Source of the DNA: Gemmatimonadota bacterium
GTDB taxonomy: Bacteria; Gemmatimonadota; Gemmatimonadetes; Longimicrobiales; Gaopeijiaceae
Length of the DNA stretch: 64,000 nucleotides
Direction: 5' to 3'
NCBI GenBank assembly: GCA_039591855.1
Contig: JBDHCV010000002.1
Location: forward strand, 1-64,000
This document shows, in pieces, positions 59 to 30,113 of the stretch. Numbering within the stretch: the stretch's first letter is position 1; every line of letters begins with the position of its first letter. The position numbers were made by a program, and so were the translations under genes. The notes under the pieces are model-generated. The model saw only the letters and a program-made list of their open reading frames with translations, had not been told where the DNA came from and did no database searches.

Positions 59-2290
59 CTAGCGCTCCCCCGGGCGGTAGACCCGCTCGGTGTGTCCTTC
101 GAGTTGGGACGGATAGAAATAGACCTCGCGAAGATCGCCCGTACTGTACCGAAGGGCCTGGTCGTTGAAGTGGGGCGACGCCGGGTCGTGGTTGAGCCCA
201 CCGGCCGTGACTGCACGGGCCCGGACGCTGTCTCCGAACTCCACCACCGCGACGAAGCTGTTGCCGCTGGTCCCGTACCACTTCTTCGACCCGTTCCGGG
301 GGGCCGCCCCGAAGGACGCCAGGGATCCCCAGCGGGCCGACGTGAAGCCCACGGGAATGCTGGGTCCGGCGTCGTCGAAGGGATGATCGATGTCCCCCGT
401 GAGCCGCTGGAACCGGTTGATGTCGCCCCAGGGCGTGCGCCACCCGCCGAAGTCCTCTTCCAGCCGTTGGACCGCGGCGGCCAGGGCCTCCAGGCGCTCC
501 CCACCCGCCGCGTCGGTGGCCATGTAGTCGTAGGCGGAGAGACCCGCCTCCCTGGCCGCTCCTCGGGTCCGCCTCATGAGCTCCTCGCCCCAGAAGACGG
601 CGAGTGAGGTGGGCACCGACTCCACGCTCCACCGCAGGTCCCAGTCTCGAAGCAGGTCGATGGGCTCGGCGAGCGTGCTCTTCCGGGGATCCGATTCCGG
701 GGTCCGGTCCCAATCCGCCACCAGTGCCGGGACCAACGGCTCGAAGGCGGTCAGGTAGCTGTCGTAGGCGGCATCGATGAGGGACTGAAGGGTGAAGTCC
801 GTCTTTCCGTCCAGTACCATGATGGCGTGGATTCCCCTGGGGTTCTCGCTGCCCGCGTCCATGTAGGGCGGGTAGTCCTCGGGGCGGGGACTGGTCGCGC
901 CGGTCACCGAGTAGGGCCAGTTGTTCGTGTTCTGGACCCAACCGTTCGACGGATTCACCGCGTTGGGGCTCTCGTCGAAGGCATGGACTCCCTGCCAGTC
1001 CGTCGAGGGGTCGCTCCCGTCCACCGGCTGTCCGTAGTCCAGACTGGGATCCCGGACCGGAACGAAGTTGGAGTGGAAGTACGCGATGTTGCCCTCGGCG
1101 TCGGCGAAGAGGGTGTTATTCGAGGAATTGGTGTGGAGCTCCAGGATCTCTCGGTATTCGGCGAGATTCTGTGCCTTCGTCCGAGTGTACGACTGGATGA
1201 GGGCGTTCAGGGGCTCCTCCATGAGGGCCACCGCCACCCAGCGCCCGTCGACCTCCCGGACGATGGGGCCGTGGTGGGTCCGGTAGACGGTGAACTCCCG
1301 CTCCGCCATTCCATCGGGGGTCCGGTAGGGGACCGTGACCTGCCGGGTCTCCACCGGCCGCTCCTCGTCGCCGTAGAGGTAGTAGAGCCCGTCCTCCCGC
1401 TCCACCACCGTCTCCAGGAACTCGTCGATGTTGTCCACGCTGCTGGAGGTATGCATCCAGCCCGCCGTCTCGTTGAACCCCTGGTAGATGAAGAACTGGC
1501 CCCAGGTCAGGGCACCGTAGGCGTTCAGCCCCTCGTCGCTGGTGACGTGGGCTTCGTGCCGGAAGAAGAACGAGGTGTGGGGGTTGATCAGGAGGAGGGC
1601 GTCCCCGTTGGCGGTGTTGGCGGGAGCGATGGCGAATCCATTGGACCCCGACGGCTCATGGTCCAGACCCAGGGCCTCGGCCGCACTGGCTACGGCCATG
1701 ATCCCGGTCTCCACCCGCTCTCCCTCAGCCTCCGCGGCCTGGGGCAGGGCCCGGGCCTCGCCGCCGTAGAAGGCTTCCAGGCGCTCCAGGTTCACGCGTT
1801 CGATATCTCCACCGATGCTCCCCTCGCTGAACGTGAGGGCCATCCAGGGCTCGAACTCCTGGATTACCCTGGGCTCCACCTCGGGGTGGGTGTGGAGGTA
1901 GTAGTTCAGTCCCGCGGCCCACGCGTCCATCAGGTCGACCAACCACGCGGGGCTCTGGGCGTAGAGTGCCTTCATCTCGTCGGGATCGATGAACAGCTTC
2001 ATCCGCAGATCCCGCCAGACCTCCCCTTCTCCGTCGGCTTCCGCCAGCCGTCCCTGGGAGAGGAGAAAGTTGTGCTCCACCCGGTTGAAGTCGTCCTCGG
2101 CCTGGGCATACATGAGCCCGAACACCGCGTCGGCGTCGGTCTCGGCCACGATGTGGGGAATGCCCCAGTCGTCCCGGGTGATGGTGACCCGCTCCGCCTG
2201 GGCCTCCCATGCGGCCACCGTGGGGTCGGAGGATCCCTGGGGAGCGCAGGCGGCGACCGCCAGCGTCAGGACTGCGAGGAGCTTCTTCAT
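59..2290 (-). CDS. Penicillin acylase family protein (Ntn-hydrolase, peptidase S45; could be an acyl-homoserine-lactone acylase). Start moved to the internal ATG of MKKLLAVLTLAVAACAPQ.
   Basis: Frame 59..2362 (-). Lipoprotein-like signal peptide MKKLLAVLTLAVAACA. Central GSNGFAIAPANTANGDALLLINPHTSF, typical of the penicillin amidase beta-subunit N-terminal Ser nucleophile region. Length about 740 aa fits PGA/PvdQ-type acylases. Confidence 0.75.
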   Translation of the reverse strand: MKKLLAVLTLAVAACAPQGSSDPTVAAWEAQAERVTITRDDWGIPHIVAETDADAVFGLMYAQAEDDFNRVEHNFLLSQGRLAEADGEGEVWRDLRMKLFIDPDEMKALYAQSPAWLVDLMDAWAAGLNYYLHTHPEVEPRVIQEFEPWMALTFSEGSIGGDIERVNLERLEAFYGGEARALPQAAEAEGERVETGIMAVASAAEALGLDHEPSGSNGFAIAPANTANGDALLLINPHTSFFFRHEAHVTSDEGLNAYGALTWGQFFIYQGFNETAGWMHTSSSVDNIDEFLETVVEREDGLYYLYGDEERPVETRQVTVPYRTPDGMAEREFTVYRTHHGPIVREVDGRWVAVALMEEPLNALIQSYTRTKAQNLAEYREILELHTNSSNNTLFADAEGNIAYFHSNFVPVRDPSLDYGQPVDGSDPSTDWQGVHAFDESPNAVNPSNGWVQNTNNWPYSVTGATSPRPEDYPPYMDAGSENPRGIHAIMVLDGKTDFTLQSLIDAAYDSYLTAFEPLVPALVADWDRTPESDPRKSTLAEPIDLLRDWDLRWSVESVPTSLAVFWGEELMRRTRGAAREAGLSAYDYMATDAAGGERLEALAAAVQRLEEDFGGWRTPWGDINRFQRLTGDIDHPFDDAGPSIPVGFTSARWGSLASFGAAPRNGSKKWYGTSGNSFVAVVEFGDSVRARAVTAGGLNHDPASPHFNDQALRYSTGDLREVYFYPSQLEGHTERVYRPGER

Positions 2291-2446
2291 TCTCTGCAAC
2301 CGGATGAGGGAATCGAGCATCGTGCCCGCGGGGAGCCTAGGAACCCCGGCCTGCCCTCGCAAGACGCGACCTCCCCCCCGCTGACGAACGCGAGGGGGAG
2401 GTCGTGTGCCCGGGGGGGGACCCCCGGGCAGGGGGTTCGACTGGGC

Positions 2447-3268
2447 CTACATGCCCGGCCCCCAGAAGTCCGGAGCGGCCGCCCTGGTCTCCGGGGCCAC
2501 GAAGGACATTCCCGGATCCAGCCGGAACCGATTGGTAATGGAGAGCTGGATGGCGTTGGACATGAAGTTCTCCATCAAGGTCATCTCGTCGGGTGTGATG
2601 GCGCCCATCACCATCTCCTCCTGGGCCATGGTGTCGTCGAACTCGGCGTAGGAATTGACGGACGAGAACATCATGAAGTAGCCCCAGGGCATCCCCGCGG
2701 TGACCTGGTAGGTGCGGAAGCTCATGTCGACCCCGGCTCGCTCCGCCGCGGCCACGTACGCTTCAACCGCCTCCTGGAACGCACCCTCCTGGCCGGCGCG
2801 GATCCGGAACATGGTGATGTCCCAGAACCGGGCCATGGCCAGGTCCGGGAAACCCCCGTGGCTGAGATCGGGACGGGCCACCGCCCTGACCTGGCGGGTG
2901 TCGTCCAGATACTCCGCGTCGGCCCTCCAGAGGCGGGCCAGTTCTGCGCTCAGAGCCGGATCGGACTCGTTCCGCTCCATGAAAGCGGCCTCTTGGGCGT
3001 GGGAGTCATACGGAGAGACGTACCAGACTTCGTTGGGGCCGCTCATGGAGACCATGGCCAGGTAGTAGTCTTCCGAGCCCGCCCGGGCGAAGGCGGCGGG
3101 CCACCCGAGTTCATTCGCACGGTGGTCGGCGTTCATGCCAACCTTCACCTCTTCGATGAAGATATTCAGGATGCCCGGCTGTGTGGTGGGCATCCCCTGG
3201 GCCGCGACCGCCGCAGCCGATGCGGCGAGAAATGCCAGGGGAAGGGTCATCCGAAAGAGTGGTCGCAT
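2447..3268 (-). CDS. Hypothetical secreted protein
   Basis: 273-aa ORF with N-terminal signal peptide (MTLPLAFLAASAAAVAAQG). No recognisable catalytic motif. Confidence 0.45.
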   Translation of the reverse strand: MRPLFRMTLPLAFLAASAAAVAAQGMPTTQPGILNIFIEEVKVGMNADHRANELGWPAAFARAGSEDYYLAMVSMSGPNEVWYVSPYDSHAQEAAFMERNESDPALSAELARLWRADAEYLDDTRQVRAVARPDLSHGGFPDLAMARFWDITMFRIRAGQEGAFQEAVEAYVAAAERAGVDMSFRTYQVTAGMPWGYFMMFSSVNSYAEFDDTMAQEEMVMGAITPDEMTLMENFMSNAIQLSITNRFRLDPGMSFVAPETRAAAPDFWGPGM

Positions 3269-3494
3269 ACATGCCTCCAGGGTCGGTGGCGTCGAGGGAC
3301 GCCCGGGGGGCGACCGCCACGGCCGGTGGGCCGTCGCGCGTCGCTCAGCCTATCCCGCATCGTGCGGGAAGGTGGTCGATTCTGAAGGCAGCTTAACCGC
3401 CATGTCGGTCGCGCGCCAGTCGGGGCCCAGTCGTGCCCGGTAGCCCCGGGGCGGTGACCTGCCAGGAGGACTGGGGTGGCGGTTGGCGGCTCGG

Positions 3495-5036
3495 CTACCG
3501 TCCCGGCGGCGTTCCGTAGGGGAACATGGTCTCCAGGTCCACGTGCTCGTAGGGGAGGGCGTCCAGGTACGTGGTGCCCACGAACGGGCCCGGCGCCTCG
3601 ACCACCACGATGGTCGGTGCGAACCCCGTCTCGTCGAATCCCCGCCGGAAGTGGACCCGGGACTTCACCACAAAGACCTGGTAGTCCTCGGGTGCGACCG
3701 GTCCGAACCGGAACCGCTCGGGGTCCGTGATCTGGGTGTAGGCCGGTGTGATCAGGACCATGTTCCCCCTCCCGAAGGAGACGGCAGCGGTGCGCTCGTA
3801 GCCCGCCCACGGCCCCACGTACTCCAGGGTCCCCCGGATTCGCACCGGCGTCCCTCCGGAGGGGGTGTATCCCCCGATCTCCATGTCGAAGGGGTCGCCC
3901 ACCGCCGCCTCGCTCTCGGCCAGGGCGTCCAGGGTCTGGGGAGAGGAGATGGCGCCGTAGAGGACCCGCTCGATCCCCGCCGCCTCGAAGGCCTTGAGGA
4001 TGTGGGTGGCGTCACCCGGCCGATCGGAGTGATCGCCCACCGCCACCGGGGTCTCTCCGGCGGACACGGCCCGGGCCACGATTCGGGCGGCCTGGTCCGG
4101 GACCGGGAAGCGGCCCAACGCGAAGTCCTCCCGTACCCGCCAGATGAAGTCGTTCATGTCGTCCGCGATCCGGTCCGCCAGGGCCTGGTCCCCGTTGGTC
4201 ATGACGTGAACCGTGGCGCCCACGTCGGGGACGTCCGACCACGGATACCCGTAGAAGACGCTCACGAAGGCGTCCGTCTCCCGGGCCTCCCAGCGCCGGG
4301 CCCGCTCCATGATGTCCATGGAGGGGGACTGCCCCGTCCACTGGAGGACCGTGGGGGTGAGGACGCCGGGTTTGCGGGTGGCGTTGGTGGGGACGTAGGT
4401 CCCGCTCATGACCCGGTGGAGGGCCCGCGCGGCCCGGGCGCCCTGGATGCCGGCGTCGTAATGGGGATATCGCTTGGTCACGAAGGCGAATTCGGCGTGT
4501 TCCAGGAACTCGGCGTCCTCGTTGCCGTGGAGGTCGAACGAGCCCGCGATGGGCACGCCGGGCCCGACGACTTCCCGGACCCTGCGGGCGATCTCGGCCT
4601 CGGGGCGGGGTACGTCGCGGACCGCCATGGCTCCGTGGAGCGCCAGGTACACCCCGTCCACTGGCATGGCCGCCCTCAGATCGGAGAGTATTCCCTCCAT
4701 GAAGTGCTCGAAAGTCTCCTCGGTGTTCCAACTCCGAGAGGAGCCGCCGAAGACGTTGTTCGGGGAGGTGAGGGGCACCAACGCCATGTCCCCGTAGTCT
4801 TCGGCCTGGCGGACGAACCCTCGGACGTAGCTCCCGGAGTCCAGCACGTCCGGCCCGGAGAGCACCTCCTGCCAGTCCTCCACCTCCACGTCGCCACCGG
4901 GGCAGAAGGTGCATGTCTCGTGCTGGAACTTGGCCACCGCCACCCGGAATAGGGTCTGTTCGTCGGTCTGCGCGGGACCGCAGGCGGCGAGGGCGAGGGT
5001 CGCGCCCAGGATGAGGGCTGAGCTTGAGCGTTTCAT
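3495..5036 (-). CDS. M81 family metallopeptidase (microcystinase MlrC-like, DUF1485 N-terminal domain)
   Basis: Lipoprotein signal (LALAACGPAQ) followed by FRVAVAKFQHETCTF, matching the conserved FxHETNTF motif of MlrC N-termini. About 510 aa is typical for the family. Confidence 0.6.
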   Translation of the reverse strand: MKRSSSALILGATLALAACGPAQTDEQTLFRVAVAKFQHETCTFCPGGDVEVEDWQEVLSGPDVLDSGSYVRGFVRQAEDYGDMALVPLTSPNNVFGGSSRSWNTEETFEHFMEGILSDLRAAMPVDGVYLALHGAMAVRDVPRPEAEIARRVREVVGPGVPIAGSFDLHGNEDAEFLEHAEFAFVTKRYPHYDAGIQGARAARALHRVMSGTYVPTNATRKPGVLTPTVLQWTGQSPSMDIMERARRWEARETDAFVSVFYGYPWSDVPDVGATVHVMTNGDQALADRIADDMNDFIWRVREDFALGRFPVPDQAARIVARAVSAGETPVAVGDHSDRPGDATHILKAFEAAGIERVLYGAISSPQTLDALAESEAAVGDPFDMEIGGYTPSGGTPVRIRGTLEYVGPWAGYERTAAVSFGRGNMVLITPAYTQITDPERFRFGPVAPEDYQVFVVKSRVHFRRGFDETGFAPTIVVVEAPGPFVGTTYLDALPYEHVDLETMFPYGTPPGR

Positions 5037-5063
5037 CGCGTTATCGGCTTCCGTTTCGGTGAA

Positions 5064-6311
5064 TCAGGCCGCGATGGCCTGCATGATCAGTCCGCAAATC
5101 CAGGCGGCGTAGGTCCCCAGCGCGTATCCCAGGACCGCGAGTAGCACGCCCGCCGGCGCCAGGCTGGGATGGAATGCGGACGCGACCACCGGGGCCGACG
5201 CCGCGCCGCCCACATTCGCCTGGCTTCCCACCGCCATGTAGAACACCGGGGCTCGAATCAGCTTCGCCACCAGGAGCAGGAGCACCGCGTGGAACGTGAT
5301 CCAGATCCCGCCCACCGCGAACAGGCCCGGGTTGCTGAAGATGGAACTCACGTCCATGCCCATCCCGATGGAGGCCACCAGGACGTAGAGCATGGCCGAG
5401 CCGACCCGGGACGCTCCGGCCCCTTCCAGGTTCTTGGCCCGTGTGAAGGAGAGCAGGAGGCCGCCGGTGGTGGCGATGACCACGATCCAGAAGAACGTGC
5501 TGGTCAGGCTCAGTCGCTCCAATCCAGGCGCCGACACGGAGATCCACCCGGAGATCCCCCCGCCCAGCGCATGAGCCAGCCCGGTCACGCCGAAACCCAC
5601 CGCCACCATGAGCATGAGGTCGGTGAGGTTGAGGACCCTGGCGTGCTCGTCGTGGAAGGCCTCCACGCTGGCCTTCAGCTCTGCGATTGCCGAGGTGTCC
5701 GCCCCGGAGCGTCGATCCATGGCGTCGGCCCGCCCGGCCATGAAGAGAAGGATCGCCATCCACACGTTGGCCCACAGGACATCCACGGCGATCATTTGCC
5801 CGAACAGTCGGTCCCCGACCTCGAAGACCTCCTTCATGGCGGTCTGGTTCGCGCCTCCACCGATCCAGCTTCCGGCCACCGTGGTGAGGCCCCGCCAGAC
5901 CGCCTCAGGACCGTCGCCGCCCACCGTCTCCGGACTGATGGATCCCACGATCAGGAGGGCGAGGGGGCCCCCCAGGACGATCCCCACCGTCCCGGTGAAG
6001 AACATGATCAGGGCCTTGGACCCCAGGCGCAGGATGGCCGGGAGGTCCACGGACAGGGTCAGGAGGACCAGCGTCGCCGGCAGCAGGTAGCGGGAGGTGA
6101 CGAAGTACAGGTTGGACTGCTCCGAGTCCACGATATTGAAGGTGTTCAGGAGCGACGGGAGGAAGTAACAGAGGAGAAGCCCGGGAACGTAGGTGTAGAA
6201 CTTCTTCCAGAAGGGGTGCTCACTCTTCTCGGTGTAGAAGACGAAGCCCAGAATGACGGCCAGCAGGCCGAGCACCACCGCATCGTTCGTGACAAGGGCT
6301 TGTGTTTCCAT
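5064..6311 (-). CDS. DUF819 (YjcL-like) polytopic membrane protein. Start moved to internal METQALVTN.
   Basis: About 10 predicted TM helices. Resembles YjcL/DUF819 (FYTYVPGLLLCYFLPSLLNTFNI). The 32 residues upstream of METQ are low complexity and probably untranslated. Confidence 0.45.
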   Translation of the reverse strand: METQALVTNDAVVLGLLAVILGFVFYTEKSEHPFWKKFYTYVPGLLLCYFLPSLLNTFNIVDSEQSNLYFVTSRYLLPATLVLLTLSVDLPAILRLGSKALIMFFTGTVGIVLGGPLALLIVGSISPETVGGDGPEAVWRGLTTVAGSWIGGGANQTAMKEVFEVGDRLFGQMIAVDVLWANVWMAILLFMAGRADAMDRRSGADTSAIAELKASVEAFHDEHARVLNLTDLMLMVAVGFGVTGLAHALGGGISGWISVSAPGLERLSLTSTFFWIVVIATTGGLLLSFTRAKNLEGAGASRVGSAMLYVLVASIGMGMDVSSIFSNPGLFAVGGIWITFHAVLLLLVAKLIRAPVFYMAVGSQANVGGAASAPVVASAFHPSLAPAGVLLAVLGYALGTYAAWICGLIMQAIAA

Positions 6312-6460
6312 GGCTCCCGTGGGGTTCGGTTCGGCGCGGGCCGGTGGAAGAGGCTGGCCCGACGGGCCTCGACGGCGGAAGATGAGGGTCGGGAGCGCAC
6401 CGGGCAAAGTGGCCGGCCCAACGGGTCGCAGGCGCGCGCCATCATCAGGGACCGACAGGA

Positions 6461-8041
6461 GTGAGTGCGATGGATCGAGAAGGAGCTCTGGCTCGGCTGG
6501 CGGACCAGCGCGACCGATGGGATTTCATCATCATCGGAGGGGGCGCCACGGGCATCGGTACGGCCCTGGACGCCGCCGCCCGGGGGTACTCGGTGGCCCT
6601 CCTGGATCGGAGCGATTTCGGCAAGGGCACTTCCAGCCGAAGCACTAAACTGATCCACGGCGGGGTCCGCTATCTCCAGCAGGGCAACATCCCCCTGGTC
6701 ATGGAGGCCCTGAAGGAGCGAGGAATCCTGCGGCGCAACGCCCCCCACCTGGTCCAGGATCTCCCGTTCGTCGTCCCCAACTACTCCTGGTGGGAGGCGC
6801 CCTTCTACGGGATCGGCATGAAGGTCTACGACGCCCTGGCCGGCAAGTACGGCTTCGGCCACTCCCGGGTCCTTTCGAGGGAGGAGACCCTGGAGCGGAT
6901 CCCCACCATCGAGACCGATGGCCTGAACGGAGGCGTGGTCTACCACGACGGCCAGTTCGACGACTCCCGACTCTTGATCAACCTTGCTCAGACGGCGGTG
7001 GAGCAGGGGGCCGTGTTGATCAACTACGCTCCGGTGACCGGGCTGACCAAGTCGTCGGACGGTCTGGTGGACGGGGTGAGGGCCCGAGACCTGGAGTCCG
7101 GGCGGGAGCTGGAGCTGCGAGGGCGGATCGTGGTGAACGCCACCGGGGTTTTCGCCGACGAGGTTCGCCGCATGGACGACCCGACAGCGGCGCCGGTGAT
7201 CCGGCCCAGCCAGGGGGTCCACGTGGTGCTGCCCCGCCGCTTCCTTCCCGGGGACTCGGCCATCATGGTGCCTCGCACCGACGACGGGCGCGTCCTGTTC
7301 GCCATCCCCTGGTACCACACCGTGGTCATCGGGACCACGGACACGCCCGTGGACAGACCGGAGCTGGAGCCCCGCCCCCTGGACGAGGAGGTGGACTTCC
7401 TGCTGGAGCACGCCGCTCGGTACCTGGAGGAGGATCCGGGCCCCGGGGACGTTCTATCCGTATTCGCCGGCCTGCGTCCCCTCGTGGACCCGTCGGGTGG
7501 GGAGGGGGAGACCTCGACGATCTCCCGGGAACACGTGATCCTGGTGCCTCCGTCGGGACTGTTGACCATCGCCGGGGGCAAGTGGACCACGTATCGGAAG
7601 ATGGCGGAGGACGTGGTGGACCATGGGGCGGTGCTCGGGGGCATGGAGATCCGGCCCTGCCCCACCCGGGAGTTGAACATCCACGGGTATCACCTAAACC
7701 CGGAGCGATTCGGACCCCTGGCCCCCTACGGCGCCGACGCCGCAGCCGTGGCCGCGCTGGAGCGGCACGATCCGGGACTCGCGGATCGGGTTCATCCCCG
7801 GCTGCCGGTGACCGCGGCCCAGGTGGTCTGGGCGGTCCGCGCCGAGATGGCCCGCACCGTGGACGACGTGCTGGCCCGGCGAACGAGGGCGTTGTTGTTC
7901 GATGCGGCGGCGGCGGCCGAGGCCGCGCCGGAGGTGGCCCGACTCATGGCCGTGGAGCTGGAGCGGGACCGGGGCTGGGAACAGGAGCAGGCGGATGACT
8001 TCCGGGCCCTGGCCGCCGGATACCGGCTCCCTGCCGGCTAG
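6461..8041 (+). CDS. glpD: FAD-dependent glycerol-3-phosphate dehydrogenase
   Basis: N-terminal FAD dinucleotide fold DFIIIGGGATGIGTALDAAARGYSVALLDRSDFGKGTSSRSTKLIHGGVRYL, typical of GlpD/GlpA. 526 aa. Start is ambiguous: GTG at 6461 or ATG at 6470. Confidence 0.85.
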   Translation: MSAMDREGALARLADQRDRWDFIIIGGGATGIGTALDAAARGYSVALLDRSDFGKGTSSRSTKLIHGGVRYLQQGNIPLVMEALKERGILRRNAPHLVQDLPFVVPNYSWWEAPFYGIGMKVYDALAGKYGFGHSRVLSREETLERIPTIETDGLNGGVVYHDGQFDDSRLLINLAQTAVEQGAVLINYAPVTGLTKSSDGLVDGVRARDLESGRELELRGRIVVNATGVFADEVRRMDDPTAAPVIRPSQGVHVVLPRRFLPGDSAIMVPRTDDGRVLFAIPWYHTVVIGTTDTPVDRPELEPRPLDEEVDFLLEHAARYLEEDPGPGDVLSVFAGLRPLVDPSGGEGETSTISREHVILVPPSGLLTIAGGKWTTYRKMAEDVVDHGAVLGGMEIRPCPTRELNIHGYHLNPERFGPLAPYGADAAAVAALERHDPGLADRVHPRLPVTAAQVVWAVRAEMARTVDDVLARRTRALLFDAAAAAEAAPEVARLMAVELERDRGWEQEQADDFRALAAGYRLPAG

Positions 8042-8664
8042 TTGATGTGGCCCTTCCCCGTTCGGGGCGGGGAGCGGCCGAAGACCCCGAACTTGAAGAG
8101 GAGCGTGCCTGCCCAGCCACTGACGTCCTGGTTGGTGAGGTTCACCAGGTCCACGTCCTGGACGAAGCGGTAGCTGCCCCCGGCGGAGATCCGCATGAAG
8201 TGGGTCACGTTCAACTCGAGGTTCACCCCCGGCTCGGCCACGAAGACCGCGTCCCAACTGGTGGGGTGGACCGGGTCGAAGCGATAGGTCACGCCGCCTC
8301 CGCCGATCAGACCCTGGAGGGTCAGGTGGACGAGGTCGTCGGAGCGCAGAAGCACCTCCAGGTCCAGGCCGCCGTATCCCATGCGGAGCTTTCCTGGCCG
8401 GTTGTACTGGTCGTAGACGTCGGTCCAGATGTCGCTGACCAATCCGTACCCGCCTCCGCCCAGGACCAGGGTGCGGTTGAGGATCCACCCGCCCCGTCCT
8501 CCCAGGAGTACAGCGAAGTCTCCCCGCATGGACGTGAACTTGGTGGCGAATCCGCCGAAACCGCCGCTCTCGATGTCCGAACCCACCAGGGTCCGGCCGC
8601 CCTGGGCGGCCAGGCCAGCCGGCAGAAACGCAAGCAGAACAAGGCCTATCGCGAATTTCCTCAT
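8038..8664 (-). CDS. Putative outer-membrane beta-barrel protein
   Basis: Signal peptide MRKFAIGLVLLAFLPAGLAAQ. Gly/aromatic-rich alternating pattern with a C-proximal LLFKFG beta-signal-like motif. Convergent with glpD with a 4-nt overlap. Confidence 0.4.
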   Translation of the reverse strand: MRKFAIGLVLLAFLPAGLAAQGGRTLVGSDIESGGFGGFATKFTSMRGDFAVLLGGRGGWILNRTLVLGGGGYGLVSDIWTDVYDQYNRPGKLRMGYGGLDLEVLLRSDDLVHLTLQGLIGGGGVTYRFDPVHPTSWDAVFVAEPGVNLELNVTHFMRISAGGSYRFVQDVDLVNLTNQDVSGWAGTLLFKFGVFGRSPPRTGKGHIN

Positions 8665-9055
8665 CGTCGTCCTCCCGAGCTGTCACCGCTTCCCAGGTCA
8701 CTCGGGACCCGCCTGGGCCCCGGTCCGAATTCGGCAGTGCGAATCCGATCTGCTGCCAAGAGGAGCATGGGGCGTGCCGCGGGCCGGGCCTGGTAGCGCC
8801 GGGGAGTTCTGCCTCTGCCTCCCGAGACGGCCCCGAGCCCGAACACGCCCTGCGTCATTCCCGTCTCCCACTCTCATGAGACGGGCGATTGGTCCTTACA
8901 GCGGCTCGCCGGCGGCCCGTTGAAACGACGGTAGCCCTGGGCATTCCGGGGACGCCAGGCAATCCTGGAAGTCCTCGCCGCTTGGCGAACCCCGCAACGC
9001 CGCCCATACTCTCAGCCACACGGAATCTCCAAGCCGACCGCCCGGAGGATCGACC

Positions 9056-11104
9056 ATGCACCGCATTCGGACCCTGTTCGCCGCCGCGCTTCTCCTCCTT
9101 CCCGGCCTGCTTTCGGGCCAGGAAGTCCGGCTTGAGGTGGGCCAGACCCGCTCCGGCACGCTCGCCAGCGGCGACACCGCCTCGTTCAACTTCCAGGCCG
9201 GAGACGACTTCCTCCTGTACGGCGAGGTGAACCAGATCAGCGTGGACGTGGTGGTGACGCTGGAGAACGCAGACGGGCAGCGGGTAGGCCCGAGTTGGGA
9301 TGGCCCGGCCCGGGGAGCGGAGGCGTTTTCGACATCCATCGCCGAGGCAGGGCTCTACACCCTGAAGGTGGCGCCCTTCGAGGAGGAGACCGGCGACTTC
9401 GAGGTCACGATCCTCCTGCTCGAGGCTGAGGCCGACGACCCCGAGCGCCTGGCGGATCAGCTCATGTTCGCCTACGACCGTCCGGGGAGTCCGGGAGGGG
9501 CGATCCAAGTCTGGCGGGACGGGCGGACCGTCTTCTCGAAGGCCTATGGCCTGGCGGATCTCGCCCACGGAATCGATTTCCAGACCACGACGGCCACCAA
9601 TATCGGGTCCACGTCCAAGCAGTTCACCGCCTTCGCGGTGCTCTTGGAGCAGGAGCGGGGCAACCTCACTCTGGACGACGACATCCGGGATTACTTCCCG
9701 GAGATCCCGGACTTCGGCGAGACCATCACGATCCGGAACCTCCTCAACCATACCTCGGGGCTTCGGGAATTCCTGAACCTCTGGGCGCTGTCCGGCGCCG
9801 ACACCCGGACCCTGACTCGGGACGACGTGCTCCGGGCCGCCACCCGTCAGCCCGCGCTCCAGAACTCCCCCGGCGCCGAGTTCAACTACAACAACACGGC
9901 CTTCTCCCTGGCCGCGCAGATCGTCGAGAAGACGTCGGAACAGGACTTCGACGACTACATGCGGGAGAACGTGTTCGGTCCGCTGGGGATGAACGACACC
10001 TATGTGCGCATGACGCCCCAGACCATCATACCGGGACGGTCCGACGGGTACACGCCCGGGAGCGAGGGGTGGACCGCGCCCGGTGACCTGGGAGGCGCCG
10101 TTGGCGCGGGCGGGATCTACGCGTCGGTCGAGGACCTGCAGCGCTGGGGGCAGAACCTGCTCTCGCCTACGGTGGGAACGCCCGAGATGGTCGAGGCGAT
10201 GATGACCGAGTTCCAACTCACCGACGGGGAGGGCTCGGGATACGGTCTGGGCCTCTTCATCGACGAGCAGCGGGGACTGAAGCGGGCCCATCACGGGGGC
10301 GCCGACGTCTCCCACCGCTCCATGATCGTCCACTACCCCGAGATCGGGGCCGGCCTCACCGCCCAGAGCAACGCCTCCAACTTCAACAGCGGCGGGACCG
10401 CGTTCCAGCTGGGGGGCGCGTTCTTCGACGACGCCATGGAGCCCGAGGAGGACGACGCGGTGGCCGCCGACGACGGGGACTTCGACCCCGAGACCTGGGA
10501 CCGGGCCGAGTTCGCGGTGGTGGAGGGCACGTACAGCCTCGACCAGGCCCCCCAGATCCAGGCCCGTCTCTGGAACTCCGGGGACAGTCTCTTCGTCCAG
10601 TTGACGAACCAGCCTGCGGCGGAGATCCGTCCCACCTCTCCCACCAGCTTCGAGCTGCTGATCGTGGACGCCCGGATCGTGTTCGAGGTCGAGGACGACG
10701 CCGAGGAGGCGTCCGGCTTCACCCTGTTCCAGAACGGCCAGGAGGTCCACGCCACCCGGGTCGCCGAGGAGGAGGTCGAGGCCGAGGAGGATTGGGAGCC
10801 CACGGCGGAGGAGTTGGCGGCGTTCGAGGGCCGCTATTACAGCGACGAGATCGAGACGTTCTACACCGTCGAGCTGCAGTGGCCCGAGGACGAGGGCGAG
10901 GAAGCGGGTGAGGAGTCCGCCCCGCGCCTGGTGATGAGGCAGCTTCGCATGGGCGAGGTCTCCATGACTCCCACGGAGCGCGATGCGTTCAGGACCGCGA
11001 GAGGGTTCAGCCTGGAGTTCGAACGGGACCGACACGGCGACGTGATCGCGCTCTACGCCGATGCGGGCCGTTCCCGGGACGTCCGGTTCGAGCGGGTGCG
11101 CTGA
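9056..11104 (+). CDS. Serine hydrolase of the beta-lactamase/PBP (class C-like) family, secreted, with a long C-terminal extension
   Basis: Signal peptide, then SxxK active-site motif (IGSTSKQFTA), then a YxN-like NHTSGL motif. The overlapping 726-aa antisense ORF has no motifs. Confidence 0.7.
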   Translation: MHRIRTLFAAALLLLPGLLSGQEVRLEVGQTRSGTLASGDTASFNFQAGDDFLLYGEVNQISVDVVVTLENADGQRVGPSWDGPARGAEAFSTSIAEAGLYTLKVAPFEEETGDFEVTILLLEAEADDPERLADQLMFAYDRPGSPGGAIQVWRDGRTVFSKAYGLADLAHGIDFQTTTATNIGSTSKQFTAFAVLLEQERGNLTLDDDIRDYFPEIPDFGETITIRNLLNHTSGLREFLNLWALSGADTRTLTRDDVLRAATRQPALQNSPGAEFNYNNTAFSLAAQIVEKTSEQDFDDYMRENVFGPLGMNDTYVRMTPQTIIPGRSDGYTPGSEGWTAPGDLGGAVGAGGIYASVEDLQRWGQNLLSPTVGTPEMVEAMMTEFQLTDGEGSGYGLGLFIDEQRGLKRAHHGGADVSHRSMIVHYPEIGAGLTAQSNASNFNSGGTAFQLGGAFFDDAMEPEEDDAVAADDGDFDPETWDRAEFAVVEGTYSLDQAPQIQARLWNSGDSLFVQLTNQPAAEIRPTSPTSFELLIVDARIVFEVEDDAEEASGFTLFQNGQEVHATRVAEEEVEAEEDWEPTAEELAAFEGRYYSDEIETFYTVELQWPEDEGEEAGEESAPRLVMRQLRMGEVSMTPTERDAFRTARGFSLEFERDRHGDVIALYADAGRSRDVRFERVR

Positions 11105-11137: not shown

Positions 11138-12304
11138 TCAGATCCGAAGGCCCAAGCCGGAGAGAAGCGTTCTGAGCTGCCTGCGTCGGACTGCGCTGCG
11201 GAGTCCGCTCCAGACGGAGTCCTCCGCCACGCCGTTCTCCGCCGCCAGCTCGAGGAGGTGCCGGGCGAATCGGATGTGATAGGACTTCTCCAGGCGAAGG
11301 GTGGCCGCCTGGGTGGCCGTGGGCGCAGGGGTCAGGGAGCCCGGAACGAGAAGCCCGTTGGCCATGAATGCCAGCTTGGTGAGAAGGCACTTGCTGCACA
11401 CACCGCAGTTGCTGTCGGGGGTGGGTGTCTCCCAACAGACCCGAAGGTGAGCCATCCCCTCGGGCCACTCCGAGATCAGGCGCGTCTTGGCCGAACGCCC
11501 CGTCTCCGAGCCGTCGTGGATCATCTCCATCAGGGGGCTGCTGAAGTACCGGTCGGTCAGGGCGTGGGAGCCGGCGGGTCCGGTTCTGCTGGCCGGGCGG
11601 ATGCTCCGCATGCCCCGGTGGTAGTTGGAGGCGGCGAGGATCGCAGCGGAACACCCTCCCGCGTAGCAGTGAAGGGCGGCCGCCAGGCCGGTGCCGTGGG
11701 CATAGAACCAGTGGGCTTTGAAGTCGCGGAAGTTCGTGCTGAGCTTCCAAAGGTCATATCCAAGGCTGGAGAGCATGGCCCGGGAGCCCTCCGCCGCCGC
11801 GTCGAAGTAATCCGCCCGATCCCGGGATATGTCGAACCCCAGGATCATCAGGCCGGCCTCGATGTTCTTCGTCCTTCGGCCCAACACTCCCAGTGCGTGG
11901 CGACGGGCTGTGTAGGCGCTGTCCAGTCCCCCCGAGAAGGCCAGCAGGGCCGGGCCGTCTCCAGGCTCCGGATGTACCTCCCGATCCGCGAACATCTCGA
12001 TGGGGCTGTAGCGATCCGGCACGAACGACGACCACATGGCCTGGAAATGCTCCATGTTGCGAAGGAGCATGTGGGAGACGTCTCCATGGACGTGGAGCGC
12101 ACGATGCGCTTCCATCGCCGGGAAGAGGAGCCCCAGGAGGAAGGAGTCCGCCACGTCGGGGATCTTGTCTCGGTGCCGCGCCTCCAGGTCGAACCAGAGG
12201 GTGTCCGGCTGGCCCGGAAGCCCCTCCACTCGGGCTGCGAGACGGATCCATCCGTCCCGCTCCTCGGGGGGCAAGGGATAGGCGTGAACGGTATCGGGGC
12301 TCAT
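11138..12304 (-). CDS. QueC-like PP-loop ATP pyrophosphatase with an N-terminal extension of about 100 aa
   Basis: PP-loop LLAFSGGLDSAYTARRHA (SGGxDS). C-terminal VCWETPTPDSNCGVCSKCLLTK aligns with the QueC zinc motif TCYNG..GDGCGHCAACNLR. 388 aa against about 230 aa for canonical QueC. Confidence 0.55.
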   Translation of the reverse strand: MSPDTVHAYPLPPEERDGWIRLAARVEGLPGQPDTLWFDLEARHRDKIPDVADSFLLGLLFPAMEAHRALHVHGDVSHMLLRNMEHFQAMWSSFVPDRYSPIEMFADREVHPEPGDGPALLAFSGGLDSAYTARRHALGVLGRRTKNIEAGLMILGFDISRDRADYFDAAAEGSRAMLSSLGYDLWKLSTNFRDFKAHWFYAHGTGLAAALHCYAGGCSAAILAASNYHRGMRSIRPASRTGPAGSHALTDRYFSSPLMEMIHDGSETGRSAKTRLISEWPEGMAHLRVCWETPTPDSNCGVCSKCLLTKLAFMANGLLVPGSLTPAPTATQAATLRLEKSYHIRFARHLLELAAENGVAEDSVWSGLRSAVRRRQLRTLLSGLGLRI

Positions 12305-12716
12305 GCGCTGCTCTGGGTTCGGTTCATTTGCGGATGTAGGGCATCACCCACGACAGGTTGCCGTGCCTGCGCAACACGCCGGCGGCGCGGGTTCCAGGCC
12401 CACGGGCCCCACGGTTCCTCGGGCCCCAGGCGACCCAGAACGGCCTGCCGTGCCGGGAATCCATACGAAATGTGGTGGATTCTGTCGAGATGGTATGGGT
12501 CCCCGTCCCGGAGGATACCCTGGGAGAAGGGTGAGAGCGAGGTCTTGGACGGTAGTCGTCCTGTAGCGCGTGTGTCTCCATGGAGGCAGAGAAGTGCAAG
12601 GAGTCTGCCTCCTGGTCGGTTCCGGGGCGCGGGCGGGGGTGGTCCGGCCCCGGAGCGCCCCGGGCCGGCTCGAGGGTAGAGCCCGCCCTCGGCGCTGATT
12701 ATCTTGTTCGTTGCTC

Positions 12717-12789
12717 GGGGCCTTAGCTCAGTTGGGAGAGCGCCTGCTTTGCAAGCAGGAGGTCGCCGGTTCGATCCCGGCAGGCTCCA
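12717..12789 (+). tRNA. tRNA-Ala (anticodon TGC)
   Basis: GGGGCCTTAGCTCAGTTGGGAGAGCGCCTGCTTTGCAAGCAGGAGGTCGCCGGTTCGATCCCGGCAGGCTCCA folds as a cloverleaf: 7-bp acceptor stem with one G-U, D-arm GCTCAGTTGGGAGAGC, anticodon loop CTTTGCAAG (TGC), T-arm GCCGGTTCGATCCCGGC. A terminator-like hairpin follows. Confidence 0.9.
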
Positions 12790-12919
12790 CTTTTACAAAG
12801 CTAGGCCCCGTTTGAGGTTACAGCCGCGGACGGGGTCTGGTGTTTCGGCCTGTGAGGCCGATGTGTCCATTTGATGTGTGAAGTGCTCCCCGATCCGCGG
12901 TGGGCTGCACCGTCGCTCT

Positions 12920-13261
12920 CTACTTCAGCTCTCGGAGAACCCTCTCCAGGCTCGGACGCAAGATCGGCACATCCGACACCGCCGTCTCCCAGACGATTTC
13001 GAGATCGACCACGAAGTACTCGTGAATCACCTTGTTGCGCATGCCGGCGATCTGGCGCCAAGGTATCTCGGGGTAGGCGTCGGTAACAGTGCCCGAGACC
13101 TTTCGAGCGGCCTCGCCCAGGACCTGTAGCTGCCGGAGCACGGCGTCCTGCTTCTCCGGATCGGCCCCGAACTGCTCCTCGGACACCCCCTCGACGTACC
13201 GCCCGATGCGATCCACCGCATCGAGCATGTGCTGGACCAGGACCTTGTCAGGATTCGGCAT
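12920..13261 (-). CDS. hepT: HepT-like (DUF86) toxin of a HepT/MntA toxin-antitoxin pair
   Basis: 113 aa with the Rx4HxY motif (RNKVIHEY). Overlaps the upstream nucleotidyltransferase gene by 14 nt. Confidence 0.8.
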   Translation of the reverse strand: MPNPDKVLVQHMLDAVDRIGRYVEGVSEEQFGADPEKQDAVLRQLQVLGEAARKVSGTVTDAYPEIPWRQIAGMRNKVIHEYFVVDLEIVWETAVSDVPILRPSLERVLRELK

Positions 13262-13538
13262 CGAAGAGCACGGTCGCCGAGGCGAGGATCGCCTCCTTCA
13301 TGTGCGGGCTCAGTCCTCGCTCGGTGACCAGGTCCACCTCACGACCGAAGAGCTTGGCAAGCTCGTCTTCGAGCTCGACGAACTCGAAGAACCCCCGACG
13401 TCCGTCATAGTCGACGATCAGATCGATGTCGGAGTCGGGGCGGTCCTCTCCCCTGGCTCCCGATCCGAAGATCCGAAGCCTCCGCACACCATATTCCTGG
13501 CACATACGTGCCAACCCTGATCGGTCGAAGTGAACCAT
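13248..13538 (-). CDS. mntA: MntA-like minimal nucleotidyltransferase antitoxin
   Basis: 96 aa with GSxxxG-type motif IFGSGARGE and DSDIDL, typical of the NTase-fold MntA partner of HepT. Confidence 0.8.
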   Translation of the reverse strand: MVHFDRSGLARMCQEYGVRRLRIFGSGARGEDRPDSDIDLIVDYDGRRGFFEFVELEDELAKLFGREVDLVTERGLSPHMKEAILASATVLFDAES

Positions 13539-13883
13539 GCTCCAATCTCCGCCGCCGGGGGCGATCCGGTCAACCTACAGGCCGGGATCATGCGAACGGT
13601 GGGGCGCTGCTGCCCGGGAGTGGGCCCCTCTCGAATAACTCGGCCCTCGAACGACTTTCACACCTGTATTGGCCTGACGTGACCCCCGAAGTTGCTCCCT
13701 GAAGGTGGACGCCTGCCAACGGGAGAGGGACACTTTCAGGCTCAGTCGAACTCACAAAGGACTGGCTCCGGCAAATCGGGGCGGTTCAGTCCTTCGGACC
13801 GCCGTCACGGCGCCCAAGCAGTGAGCCTGAACGGTCTTCCGAGAACCCCGGGGTAGTTCAGCCCAAGCTCCGGGCCGTCGCCG

Positions 13884-14321
13884 CTATCGCCGCCCACGAA
13901 CGAAGACGTGGTCGAAGTCATCATCGACAACGGTCATTAGCGTCAGCGTATCGCCGCTTAGGTGCACGACCCAGTCCGTATCCAATAGGAGTGGAGGGGA
14001 GTCAGACAGCACAAGAAGCGGCCCTCGCTCCTTAGAGCGGGCTGCCACATCTGTGCCCTGTACCAGAAATGTCCCGCGACCGACCACGGAATCGCCATCG
14101 AAGATAGAGAACTCACGCTCCCCAAAGCGCAGCTGCTGTCCTCGGCCGAGGGTCGTGTTGAAGCCCTCCAAGTGTCCACCGATTGCTGCGGCCCAGTCCC
14201 AATCGCCCACCAGAGAGGTCTCCTCCGATTCCCTCAACTCCCCGCCGCAAGCAACAAGGGCCAAGCCGAAGACCGAAATCAGGGGCCGTCTCAACGGCGA
14301 CTTCATGGCCAGACCCTCCAC
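13884..14321 (-). CDS. Small lipoprotein, putative immunity protein for the upstream HExxH RHS-CT toxin
   Basis: Lipoprotein signal LALVACGGE. Start overlaps the end of the orphan toxin cassette by about 19 nt. Position matches toxin-immunity pairs. Confidence 0.4.
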   Translation of the reverse strand: MEGLAMKSPLRRPLISVFGLALVACGGELRESEETSLVGDWDWAAAIGGHLEGFNTTLGRGQQLRFGEREFSIFDGDSVVGRGTFLVQGTDVAARSKERGPLLVLSDSPPLLLDTDWVVHLSGDTLTLMTVVDDDFDHVFVRGRR

Positions 14322-14830
14322 GAACTCAAGACGCGCTGGGTGTGGACCGCCTGGGCCCTAAGCCAGGGGGGTAGTCCGGCGAGAATGCGGGCCTGATCGG
14401 CGTAGATATCCCTATGCTCACTAACCGCCCTCCCTTGCCTGTGCTGAAGCTCATGCCACGCGGTCATGCCGATATCCACCGCATTGCCTACAGCAAGGTC
14501 GATCCGGACATAACCCCAAGGACCCTGACCGCGATTGCCACCGAGACTACCGGCAGCCACACGGTCGGACCTGTTGGTGAAGACCACGTCCACCTCAAGG
14601 TCTTCGTAGCCTTGGATCGCATCTTTCAATTGCGTCCGGGCTTCGTCGGAGAGTCCCGGTCTAACCAGAACACCCTTGAGGATGTTGATTACCGCACGGC
14701 ATTCGAGATCTTCCCGCCCCTCCTCCTCCTTACACAGCCCAAACGGATCCGAGAAGTTGATCGGATCCCCGCCGGCGTACCCGTAGAGGTTGAGCCCACC
14801 GGCGATCCCAATGGGATCTTGTTGGGTGAA
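14303..14830 (-). CDS. Orphan, 5'-truncated RHS repeat-protein C-terminal cassette: RHS core end followed by an HExxH putative metallopeptidase toxin domain. No ATG; the frame opens straight after a stop.
   Basis: Reverse-strand translation from 14830 gives SIGQFTQQDPIGIAGGLNLYGYAGGDPINFSDPFGLCKEEEG..., the RHS core terminal DPxGL motif, then a CT domain containing MTAWHELQH (HExxH). The track ORF 14303..14629 is the same frame with a TTG pseudo-start. Confidence 0.6.
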   Translation of the reverse strand, partial: FTQQDPIGIAGGLNLYGYAGGDPINFSDPFGLCKEEEGREDLECRAVINILKGVLVRPGLSDEARTQLKDAIQGYEDLEVDVVFTNRSDRVAAGSLGGNRGQGPWGYVRIDLAVGNAVDIGMTAWHELQHRQGRAVSEHRDIYADQARILAGLPPWLRAQAVHTQRVLSSWRVWP

Positions 14831-14836
14831 CTGCCC
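14733..14836. repeat. 104-bp direct repeat copy 1 (encodes the RHS core C-terminal end). About 99% identical to 15841..15944.
   Basis: cacagcccaaacggatccgagaagttgatcggatccccgccggcgtacccgtagaggttgagccc[a/g]ccggcgatcccaatgggatcttgttgggtgaactgccc occurs at both positions with one mismatch. Confidence 0.9.
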
Positions 14837-14982
14837 GATTGACGCACTTCAGCGTAACTCAGCCCGCTAAGTGCCCGACGTTTTTACTCTTGGCCGCTCA
14901 CTTTTTCTGAAATCACTTCGATTTCGCCGATATGCCCTGACGTGGGGCTTTAGGAGCTCTCCGCTGGGCGCGTTTCGGGCCA

Positions 14983-15351
14983 TTATCTACGACCCATCAA
15001 TTTCACCACGGCCGGGATCGAGAATAGCCCCAGCAAGGCGGCCGTGCCCCAACCCAATCCACCCCACCGGACCGACGGAATCGCAACGGCGCTCAGGACT
15101 ACGGCGAGGGTGCACTTCGCAACCAACCACGGGGATCGCCGACTGCCGCTGGCGATGAAGGCGATCGCCGCGAACCCAAACCCAGCCGCAGACACGACGG
15201 CCCTCATAGAGTTCCCGCGGTCACTCAGAGACTCCATGTCGAAGAACACGGGGATGAGAGCGTTAGCCGCCAACCCGATCACGATCGCCGTCATCGCCGA
15301 CGATATCTCTGGCACATCCGCCCCGCGCGAAGTCTCCGGCCCGTGGCTCAT
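14983..15351 (-). CDS. Small integral membrane protein, putative immunity protein for the glycine-zipper RHS-CT toxin
   Basis: 122 aa with 3-4 predicted TM helices. Start overlaps the stop of the upstream cassette by 4 nt (coupled). Confidence 0.4.
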   Translation of the reverse strand: MSHGPETSRGADVPEISSAMTAIVIGLAANALIPVFFDMESLSDRGNSMRAVVSAAGFGFAAIAFIASGSRRSPWLVAKCTLAVVLSAVAIPSVRWGGLGWGTAALLGLFSIPAVVKLMGRR

Positions 15352-16001: not shown

Positions 16002-16038
16002 TACCCATGCCCGACCTACTCACAACCTGGAGGTCGGC

Positions 16039-16962: not shown

Positions 16963-17063
16963 TCGGGAGGGTTGAAACCGGGGTATTCCTGGGGCGAAAG
17001 GTGGGCCACTTGGGCCGGATAATGGGCCTTTTCAGGGCGGCAGATTCCGGCATCGCGAGGCGG

Positions 17064-17180
17064 CAAGAACGGCAGATCGTGCGCTCTACCAATGAGTTAG
17101 ACGTGTTCTTGCCGTGATTCGGCTTGGCCGATTATCGATTTGCAGGCAGGAGGTCGCCGGTTCGATCCCGGCAGGCTCCA
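17064..17180 (+). repeat. Composite tRNA-derived repeat, copy A. A 9-bp-stem hairpin holds an inverted tRNA D-arm-like segment, then a spacer, then a direct copy of the tRNA-Ala 3' half (17139..17180). attR-like.
   Basis: ggcaagaacggcagatcgtgcgctctaccaatgagttagacgtgttcttgcc is a hairpin (ggcaagaac/gttcttgcc) whose loop resembles the reverse complement of the tRNA D-arm (GCGCTCTCCCAACTGAGCTAAGG). ttgcaggcaggaggtcgccggttcgatcccggcaggctcca matches the tRNA-Ala 3' 42 nt with one mismatch. Confidence 0.8.
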
Positions 17181-17193
17181 CTGGCGTAAGGCG

Positions 17194-17226
17194 AAGCCCC
17201 GTAGTCGTTTAGGCTGCGGGGCTTTT
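17194..17226 (+). terminator. Hairpin plus short T-tract after repeat copy A (intrinsic-terminator-like). A homologous hairpin follows copy C at about 43043..43075.
   Basis: aagccccg...cggggctt 8-bp stem followed by ttctgtg. Confidence 0.35.
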
Positions 17227-19673: not shown

Positions 19674-19677
19674 CGCA

Positions 19678-23648: not shown

Positions 23649-23667
23649 GCTGGCAACCCCAGGATCC

Positions 23668-24000: not shown

Positions 24001-24008
24001 GTGCGATG

Positions 24009-28177: not shown

Positions 28178-28241
28178 TGAATCCTCTTTGGTTGTTGACC
28201 AGGCCGCCGAAGTACATTCTGGTCAGCTCAATGCGTCGTGT

Positions 28242-30101: not shown

Positions 30102-30113
30102 GGTTCGACTCGG

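Follow-up and report, generated by a model that had tools for sequence, protein, structure and literature searches.

A PP-loop protein encoded beside a tRNA-Ala island in a Gemmatimonadota bacterium belongs to a large unnamed family with a predicted QueC-type core

The canonical QueC protein of queuosine synthesis is about 220 amino acids (aa) long, is frequently linked to queD or queE and carries a zinc motif of the form C-x8-CxxCxxC; QueC-fold enzymes have also recently been shown to attach nucleobases to proteins in CBASS (cyclic oligonucleotide-based anti-phage signalling systems), and probably do so in Qat. Here we describe a gene at positions 11138 to 12304 (minus strand) of a 64,000-nt stretch of DNA, (the window), from contig JBDHCV010000002.1 of a Gemmatimonadota bacterium, (assembly GCA_039591855.1), whose product combines a PP-loop with a QueC-type four-cysteine motif. 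The gene is real and its product is an intact and, as judged from sequence, probably active member of a large unnamed family, in which a catalytic core of QueC fold is flanked by a family-specific N-domain (~110 aa) and a C-terminal helical extension (~65 aa). We favour, with a probability of roughly 0.55, an active enzyme of this family that uses PP-loop adenylation/amidation chemistry in a role other than queuosine synthesis, Qat or CBASS.

Among the described relatives, QueC and Cap9 adenylate the carboxylate of 7-carboxy-7-deazaguanine (PMC13279940, PMC13329287). The motifs YxQxHxxE, VPxRN and YPDC are needed for queuosine synthesis, their Tyr and Arg being essential in QueC (PMC13329287). 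Cap9, at ~185 aa a minimal protein, retains the catalytic motifs of QueC, and its gene lies beside that of a CD-NTase (PMC13329287); QatC carries an N-extension, a QueC core and a three-helix C-terminal extension (PMC13279940). A 2026 survey of the QueC family rested on the Pfam model PF06508 (PMC13329287), which does not detect the lineage described here. The lineage thus lies outside that survey and outside the Pfam, NCBIfam and PADLOC models, the kind of enzyme (a QueC-fold PP-loop protein) being already known. Our literature search found no paper on it, nor on its apparent sister DUF6395.

Gene product and domain architecture

The gene and the parts of its product are as follows.

11138..12304, minus strand: whole gene, encoding a 388-aa, predicted zinc-binding PP-loop enzyme of the unnamed QueC-fold family (open reading frame, homologues and AlphaFold2 model)
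11969..12304, minus strand: family-specific N-terminal alpha/beta domain, residues 1-112 (conservation; model of the domain alone)
11339..11968, minus strand: predicted QueC-fold PP-loop core (adenine-nucleotide alpha-hydrolase), residues ~113-322
11918..11935, minus strand: PP-loop SGGLDS, residues 124-129, an ATP pyrophosphate-binding motif (translation)
11585..11623, minus strand: clade-specific low-confidence loop, residues 228-240, YHRGMRSIRPASR (predicted local distance difference test score, pLDDT, below 50)
11387..11437, minus strand: QueC-type zinc motif C290-x9-C300-xx-C303-xx-C306, residues 290-306 (translation)
11141..11338, minus strand: C-terminal helical extension, residues ~323-388 (helices in the model)

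The open reading frame (ORF) starts with ATG, and its 388-aa product exceeds Escherichia coli QueC (231 aa, PP-loop at residues 9-14) by 157 aa, with ~110 aa of the surplus at the N-terminus and ~50-65 aa at the C-terminus. The original prediction, which was made from the DNA letters, had put the surplus at about 160 aa and had pointed to an N-terminal extension, and both hold. This N-terminal region is conserved in more than 100 homologues; the twelve closest (25-62% identity) share its start position together with L36, W37, G74 and L81, and residues 53-96 hold 12 of the 45 columns that are conserved at 85% or more in our 105-member family alignment, A4 (conserved residues of the domain being D53, M64, G74, V76, S77, L80, L81, N83, W91 and P96). 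Residues 1-112 form a compact alpha/beta domain in AlphaFold2, with a pLDDT of 94.5 when the domain is modelled alone and of 88-98 within the full model. Because the region is conserved in homologues and folds confidently, the start is not mis-called, which had been named beforehand as a finding that would refute the prediction. The hope of placing the domain by remote comparison was disappointed: a fold search of the domain alone against the PDB gave nothing significant (best E 0.12), and QatC was not among the 50 hits shown (all E<=1). The first 75 residues of a 233-aa product elsewhere in the family's loci (L006:12166-12867) are homologous to the N-domain (hhalign 96.9%, E 1.6e-10, 71 columns) and are followed by no PP-loop domain, the next gene being a DUF364 gene; the sequence comparison suggests that the N-domain also exists detached from the enzyme core, unless this ORF is a gene fragment.

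In the core, SGGxDS follows the first strand of a Rossmann-like sheet, as is general in the PP-loop superfamily, and S124, G125, G126 and D128 are 95-100% conserved among the 105 members. The zinc-motif stretch (residues 290-306) reads CWETPTPDSNCGVCSKC; its four cysteines and N299 are invariant in the same alignment, the family also conserves K305 within it, and by its sequence we expect it to bind zinc. It aligns with the zinc motif of E. coli QueC (hhalign) and is the sole part of the protein matched by PF06508. Conserved polar residues (D158, N191, S246, R270, K273 and K305) surround the core. In an alignment of the closest homologues, the loop insertion at 228-240 is confined to the window protein and the relatives nearest to it, P0002, P0003 and P0005, and the C-terminal extension, which is weakly conserved in sequence, forms helices at 330-334, 341-356 and 363-383 in the model.

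The AlphaFold2 model of the full-length protein has a mean pLDDT of 90.6 and a predicted template modelling score of 0.89. The window protein looks like a working enzyme because it retains 42 of the 45 family-conserved columns, every PP-loop and cysteine position included. An identical protein (100%) is encoded on contigs of five metagenome samples, and the GC content at third codon positions (GC3) of the gene, 0.84, falls within the range of the genes to its left (59..11104; 0.84-0.91), the genes of the neighbouring integrated island having 0.68-0.83.

A Foldseek search of the full-length model against the PDB placed QatC on top (9y02_B and 9y01_B; E 1.5e-6, ~400 columns, TM-score 0.49) and Cap9 third, with QueC, Cap9 and QatC leading the fold searches. 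By its modelled structure, the core is a QueC-fold PP-loop domain with a QueC-type four-cysteine site. The original prediction had placed the protein in the QueC family: as far as fold, PP-loop and four-cysteine motif go, a QueC-type core is what we find, but membership of the family fails by sequence. PF06508 scores it at 11.1 bits, the cut-off being 22 (E 0.28), over residues 289-315 (27 residues) only; the NCBIfam models, including TIGR00364 (QueC), NF041925 (QatC) and TIGR03573, give no match to the window protein at E<=10, and the PADLOC models none at all. All its Pfam matches (E 0.22-0.32; RexB, POTRA_TamA_1 and this one to the QueC C-terminus) are at noise level. No curated model reaches its threshold in any of the 105 relatives, where matches below threshold are to DUF6395 (61 relatives, best E 1.1e-5), QueC (47), LarE (11) and QatC (4), with TIGR00364 faintly matching five. 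Searching the PDB by sequence with the window protein gave chance-level matches only, and profiles of 13 and of 105 sequences found the PP-loop only (GMP synthase, the nitrile synthetase ArtA and QatC), at E 0.02 or worse. Aligned with E. coli QueC by hhalign, the 105-sequence profile matched 25 columns round the zinc motif with a probability of 31%, and tblastn with E. coli QueC against the window misses the gene altogether.

Read directly, the 388-aa sequence contains none of the motifs YxQxHxxE, VPxRN and YPDC; at roughly corresponding places the family consensus has GFDIxL, TNxR and SSxxY. Nor does tblastn with E. coli QueD, QueE, QueF, QueA and Tgt find a homologue in the window (best E 0.022), and the gene calls across it (made with the GC3-based ORF picker described below) hold no second PP-loop protein, as judged by the motif SGGxD[ST].

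The unnamed family and its gene context

A word-indexed search for homologues returned 13 relatives only, all unnamed or ‘hypothetical’. An exhaustive profile search over representatives of clusters at 50% identity returned 9,414 at E<=1e-3, 7,814 at E<=1e-10 and 4,376 at E<=1e-30; among the 150 matches listed, most are 380-420 aa long and match the profile from end to end, N-domain included, and every source name that we retrieved for family members is ‘hypothetical protein’. An initial metagenome scan with the window protein alone found no match, the metagenome loci coming from a repeat scan with a closer alignment; from genomes and metagenomes together we obtained 106 distinct loci, and those from genomes span Cyanobacteria, Planctomycetota, Verrucomicrobiota, Actinomycetota, Chloroflexota, Gemmatimonadota, Acidobacteriota, Proteobacteria, Spirochaetes and others. 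Among the culturable carriers in the genome set are Streptomyces sp. NPDC005931, Kitasatospora sp. NPDC001527, Psychrobacter sp. 72-O-c, Aliterella atlantica CENA595 and Crocosphaera watsonii WH 8501; of these five, Psychrobacter (L042) and Aliterella (L028) alone showed glycan genes next to the family gene. Members are ~390 aa long and share the signature HG.VS..LL.NL..F...W (in the N-domain), SGGxDS, GFD, TN...W, GS, DG..R..K and RVC-x9-CxxCxKC. The window protein belongs with them by its 42 conserved columns and by full-length alignment both to 12 homologues and to the members of A4, as well as by profile matches over the full length. To have called it a solitary or novel-context QueC-like enzyme was therefore a step in the right direction, but one that missed its membership of a large unnamed family.

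We clustered the ten nearest neighbours of the gene at each locus by BLAST, and named the clusters by Pfam matches of their representatives. By these counts, which are approximate, a glycan-type gene lies within five genes at 48 of the 106 loci; the figure is 38 of 75 when only loci with seven or more called genes are counted. The commonest direct neighbour is an AsnB-like protein of ~600 aa, (the PP-loop part of Asn_synthase), found at 26 loci and directly upstream on the same strand at 18. A polysaccharide pyruvyl transferase (PS_pyruv_trans) is a neighbour at 28 loci and, in one pyruvyl-transferase cluster (10 loci), its gene is always the next downstream on the same strand. Glycosyltransferases of families 2 (GT2; 26 loci) and 1 (GT1; 10 loci), the ATP-binding cassette (ABC) ATPase Wzt with its Wzt_C domain (10 loci), an ABC-2 permease (5 loci) and a giant PKD/Golvesin_C protein (7 loci) also occur as neighbours, and a module of Wzm, Wzt, AsnB-like protein, family member and pyruvyl transferase recurs. 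The family domain is itself fused to PS_pyruv_trans (P0033, P0035, P0039, P0167), to GT2 (P0101) and to Methyltransf_24 (P0119); it is doubled in P0014, P0016 and P0058, and 16 loci hold at least two paralogues.

Clustering of the neighbours in 102 loci yielded no universal partner. The genes that follow P0006, P0008, P0010 and P0012 share no homology with one another, and at 37 of the genome-collection loci that carry no glycan flag we counted 154 Pfam families, none of them matched by more than three proteins. At the loci of P0167 (L127-L129), a 726-aa fusion protein combines the family domain, a pyruvyl transferase and a weak PqqD-like domain; its neighbours are a sulfotransferase, two GT2 genes and a second fusion, GT1-PqqD. 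To find PqqD-like domains within a glycan cluster is unusual.

In a rough neighbour-joining tree, the window protein groups with its counterparts at L074 and L075 (62 and 59% identity) and at L006 and L078 (47 and 46%), in a clade that lies apart from the strongly glycan-linked one. We found no informative partner at these four loci. At L075 the family gene is followed directly downstream by that of a 76%-identical orthologue of a 208-aa secreted Gly-rich protein of the window, at L074 there is a convergent DsrE-like gene, and L006 and L078 share a DUF364 neighbour. Elsewhere, L007 has an overlapping Methyltransf_11 gene, P0007 has a tandem paralogue, and P0030 (41% identity) is surrounded by unrelated genes. 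In the sister group of this clade (L021, L088 and L094), a conserved protein of ~440 aa with no Pfam match is always encoded next downstream on the same strand, and could be an unrecognised partner.

Proposed function and its alternatives

To our knowledge, every PP-loop enzyme characterised so far spends ATP on adenylating a carboxyl or carbonyl oxygen, after which a nitrogen or sulphur nucleophile displaces AMP; this chemistry is shared by QueC, Cap9, NAD+ synthetase, asparagine synthetase and GMP synthetase. By analogy with these, ATP-dependent adenylation and amidation would be expected of the window protein also. Because the PP-loop is conserved, the zinc site is of QueC type and polar residues of the core are conserved, the best-supported mechanism is most likely that of an ATP-dependent adenylating amidoligase or amidotransferase for a carboxylated substrate. 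ATP would bind at SGGLDS; adenylation of the substrate at a carboxyl or carbonyl oxygen would release pyrophosphate; a nitrogen nucleophile, (ammonia or an amine), would then displace AMP to give an amide; and the four-cysteine site would, as it does in QueC, bind a structural zinc next to the substrate pocket.

The genes of the family's largest clade lie in glycan clusters of the ABC-transporter type or form fusions with pyruvyl transferase or GT2. A carboxylated sugar or glycan is therefore the most likely typical substrate of the family, for example the carboxylate of a pyruvyl ketal or of a uronic acid; it is gene context and fusions that point to these carboxylates for the glycan-linked clade. 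Taking the observations together, we suggest tentatively, as a wider reading that we hold to be possible rather than probable, that the family is a third ‘long’ QueC-fold lineage beside QatC, outside PF06508 and with thousands of members in many bacterial phyla, whose ancestral role was an undescribed ATP-dependent modification of the glycans of ABC-transporter pathways, stand-alone copies being offshoots with other substrates. Such a modification might be the amidation, or ligation to an amine, of a pyruvyl-ketal or uronic carboxylate, alongside the pyruvyl transferase and the AsnB-like enzyme, and could possibly build a chain-terminating cap that is recognised by Wzt.

Several points weigh against a glycan role, above all for the copy in the window. 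Over half of the loci are without glycan genes; the neighbours were called with a simple GC3-based ORF picker, so that their counts are approximate, and the tree is a rough one. Transfer of the glycan role to the window copy is weak because there are no glycan neighbours in its own clade (L074, L075, L006 and L078; 46-62% identity) nor around P0030; any glycan link of this copy is one that we infer, the copy standing alone within a clade of mixed contexts. The best full-length Foldseek match, moreover, is QatC, which leaves room for a protein-modifying role.

Alternatively, the family member in the window could be a small-molecule tailoring enzyme of a metabolite or natural product, such as a synthetase that, like ToyM or ArtA, forms an amide or nitrile, or one that carries out an ATP-dependent amidation together with a methyltransferase or SnoaL-like protein. 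The loci that lack glycan genes fit such a role, as do the Methyltransf_11 gene directly downstream and overlapping at L007, (and, more weakly, a methyltransferase at L006), the Methyltransf_24 fusion of P0119, a SnoaL-like gene directly downstream at four loci, short-chain dehydrogenase neighbours, and the presence of ArtA, at the level of the PP-loop only, among both fold and sequence matches. Each of these associations is limited to a few loci, however, and the window's clade has no recurring partner, while the window itself has no adjacent methyltransferase, SnoaL-like gene or biosynthetic cluster, so that we think this rather unlikely here. A solitary protein modifier like QatC or Cap9, which would join a deazaguanine or other carboxylated base to the N-terminus of a protein whose gene lies elsewhere, possibly as unrecognised defence near the island, would account for the Foldseek result and yet seems improbable: the NF041925 and PADLOC QatC models miss the protein, the N-domain by itself does not retrieve QatC, and the zinc motif has a C-x9-C spacing unlike the C-x19-CGxCxxRR of QatC (PMC13329287). 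In addition, no qatA, qatB, qatD or CD-NTase gene is adjacent, no QatB-like partner is conserved across the 102 loci, and the gene lies outside the att-bounded island, with a GC3 that fits the left-hand genes and not those of the island.

That the gene is a remnant, either in decay or without enzymatic function (a pseudo-enzyme or scaffold kept by chance near a recombination hotspot), could be argued from its stand-alone position, from the lack of a recognisable promoter or terminator and from the disordered, clade-specific loop. The retention of the conserved residues, the identical protein in five samples, the GC3 typical of the left flank and the high-confidence model all speak for a maintained enzyme instead, and leave this explanation only a slim chance. 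A divergent housekeeping QueC, converting 7-carboxy-7-deazaguanine to preQ0 for queuosine, had been offered by the original prediction and is very unlikely, the least probable of the explanations weighed here: sequence comparison with QueC reaches no further than the zinc motif, (PF06508 and hhalign, with nothing from TIGR00364 or tblastn), the motifs essential for that reaction are absent, relatives occur as tandem paralogues at 16 loci and fused to glycan enzymes, and neither queD, queE, queF and tgt nor a preQ1 riboswitch is found nearby.

With this lineage, the QueC scaffold would reach further than is known at present. Family members that repeatedly adjoin pyruvyl transferases, or are fused to them, offer a concrete, testable lead to an undescribed glycan modification and, for annotation, the pair of SGGxDS and CxxCxxC is no evidence of queuosine synthesis or of phage defence.

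The tRNA-Ala locus and comparison with known systems

The surroundings of the gene include the following features.

12717..12790, plus strand: tRNA-Ala(TGC), the attachment site of an island (ARAGORN; Rfam 70.6 bits)
12305..12716, minus strand: leader between the tRNA-Ala and the start codon, 412 nt
9056..11104, plus strand: 682-aa serine hydrolase of the Beta-lactamase family (PF00144, E 2.8e-64)
8038..8664, minus strand: 208-aa Gly-rich protein with a signal peptide, possibly a small beta-barrel (no Pfam match)

The tRNA-Ala lies 412 nt upstream of the start codon, and a 64-nt direct repeat that includes its 3' half (12748-12811 and 17139-17202, 86% identity) flanks an island of ~4.4 kb (12748-17202) at the 3' end of the tRNA. 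This island holds a HepT/MNT toxin-antitoxin pair (12920-13261 and 13248-13538, both on the minus strand), several small ORFs and a tyrosine integrase (15898-16962, plus strand). The gene lies 5' of the tRNA and, because the att repeats place the island on the far side, it stands beside the island and is not part of its cargo. The original prediction had drawn attention to a tRNA-Ala hotspot: the adjacency is real, but its link to the hotspot or to defence is coincidental. Within the island there is a 105-nt direct repeat (14732-14836 and 15840-15944, 99% identical); since one metagenome contig (L002) is without exactly the 1108 bp between its copies, the island exists in a long and a short form across samples.

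The leader matches no Rfam family, the preQ1 riboswitch included, and no sigma-70-like promoter or terminator. It contains a 91-aa ORF (12324-12599, minus strand) of low complexity and with no Pfam match, which is a called gene in one metagenome annotation (L003) and is probably not a gene.

On the other side, the Beta-lactamase-family gene is convergent with the gene across a 33-nt gap. It was considered as a partner and rejected, as tblastn places it beside no homologue (L001-L076); its only other match in these loci, at L061, has 28% identity and is ~4 kb from the family gene. The gene for the 208-aa protein was likewise set aside as a functional partner: its L075 orthologue (1654-2148) is directly downstream of the 59%-identical homologue, but it is absent from the other family loci (L001-L076) and so reflects local synteny. 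That the Beta-lactamase-family gene stands between the two in the window suggests either its insertion here or its loss in L075. Further left are genes for a glycerol-3-phosphate dehydrogenase-like DAO protein, DUF819, MlrC and penicillin amidase. The statement that anti-phage partners are lacking is confirmed, with the Beta-lactamase-family gene and the tRNA as neighbours and no TatD, ATPase, CD-NTase or TGT gene adjacent. Beyond the island, sixteen genes run on the same strand (17489-34948, minus); they include an 866-aa protein with TCAD9, NUDT9_N and NUDIX domains (19678-22278) and a cNMP-binding ion channel (22275-23648), their Pfam hits coming from contig L001, which is identical. An association of TCAD9 with conflict systems is known.

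Compared with QueC (PF06508/TIGR00364; PDB 3BL5), the window protein has 13% identity and shares the four-cysteine zinc motif, with a spacer that is one residue longer by sequence (C-x9-C here, C-x8-C in QueC). It is longer through its extra N- and C-terminal domains, the helical C-terminal extension having no counterpart in QueC, and is without the three substrate/catalytic motifs. There is no linkage to queD or queE in the window, and its relatives occur as tandem paralogues and in glycan clusters. The likeness to QatC (QatABCD; NF041925; PDB 9Y01/9Y02) is closer in length (~430 versus ~390 aa) and in layout, both proteins having an N-extension, a QueC core and C-terminal helices and both being without the canonical QueC substrate motifs (PMC13279940, PMC13329287). 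In contrast, the QatC models NF041925 and PADLOC PDLC02214 do not match the window protein and are faint in four of the 105 relatives (best E 4.4e-4 and 1.7e-3), and the signature motifs differ, with K305 conserved where QatC has RR. QatC works in a defence context with qatA (an ATPase), qatB and qatD (a TatD nuclease), whereas the context of the unnamed family is glycan-related or mixed and no such partner recurs among its 102 loci. Since the N-domain alone retrieves no QatC and the zinc spacing is of QueC type, the parallel with QatC may be nothing more than architectural.

Cap9 of type IV CBASS (PDB 9NTO) is unlike the window protein, which is 388 aa long, is without the QueC motifs that Cap9 keeps, and has no CD-NTase among its Pfam-annotated neighbours. 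The uncharacterised Pfam family DUF6395 is, from sequence comparison, probably a sister lineage: its matches to 61 of the 105 members lie over the zinc-motif region and none reaches the 25-bit cut-off, the window protein itself giving no match even at E<=10. WbpG/PseA, the N-acetyl sugar amidotransferase (TIGR03573; PDB 8WEX), is not matched through TIGR03573 and is not the closest fold match of the window protein. Both WbpG/PseA and the AsnB-like uronamide synthases are ATP-dependent PP-loop enzymes from polysaccharide clusters, and they offer a functional analogy for the glycan-associated clade of the family.

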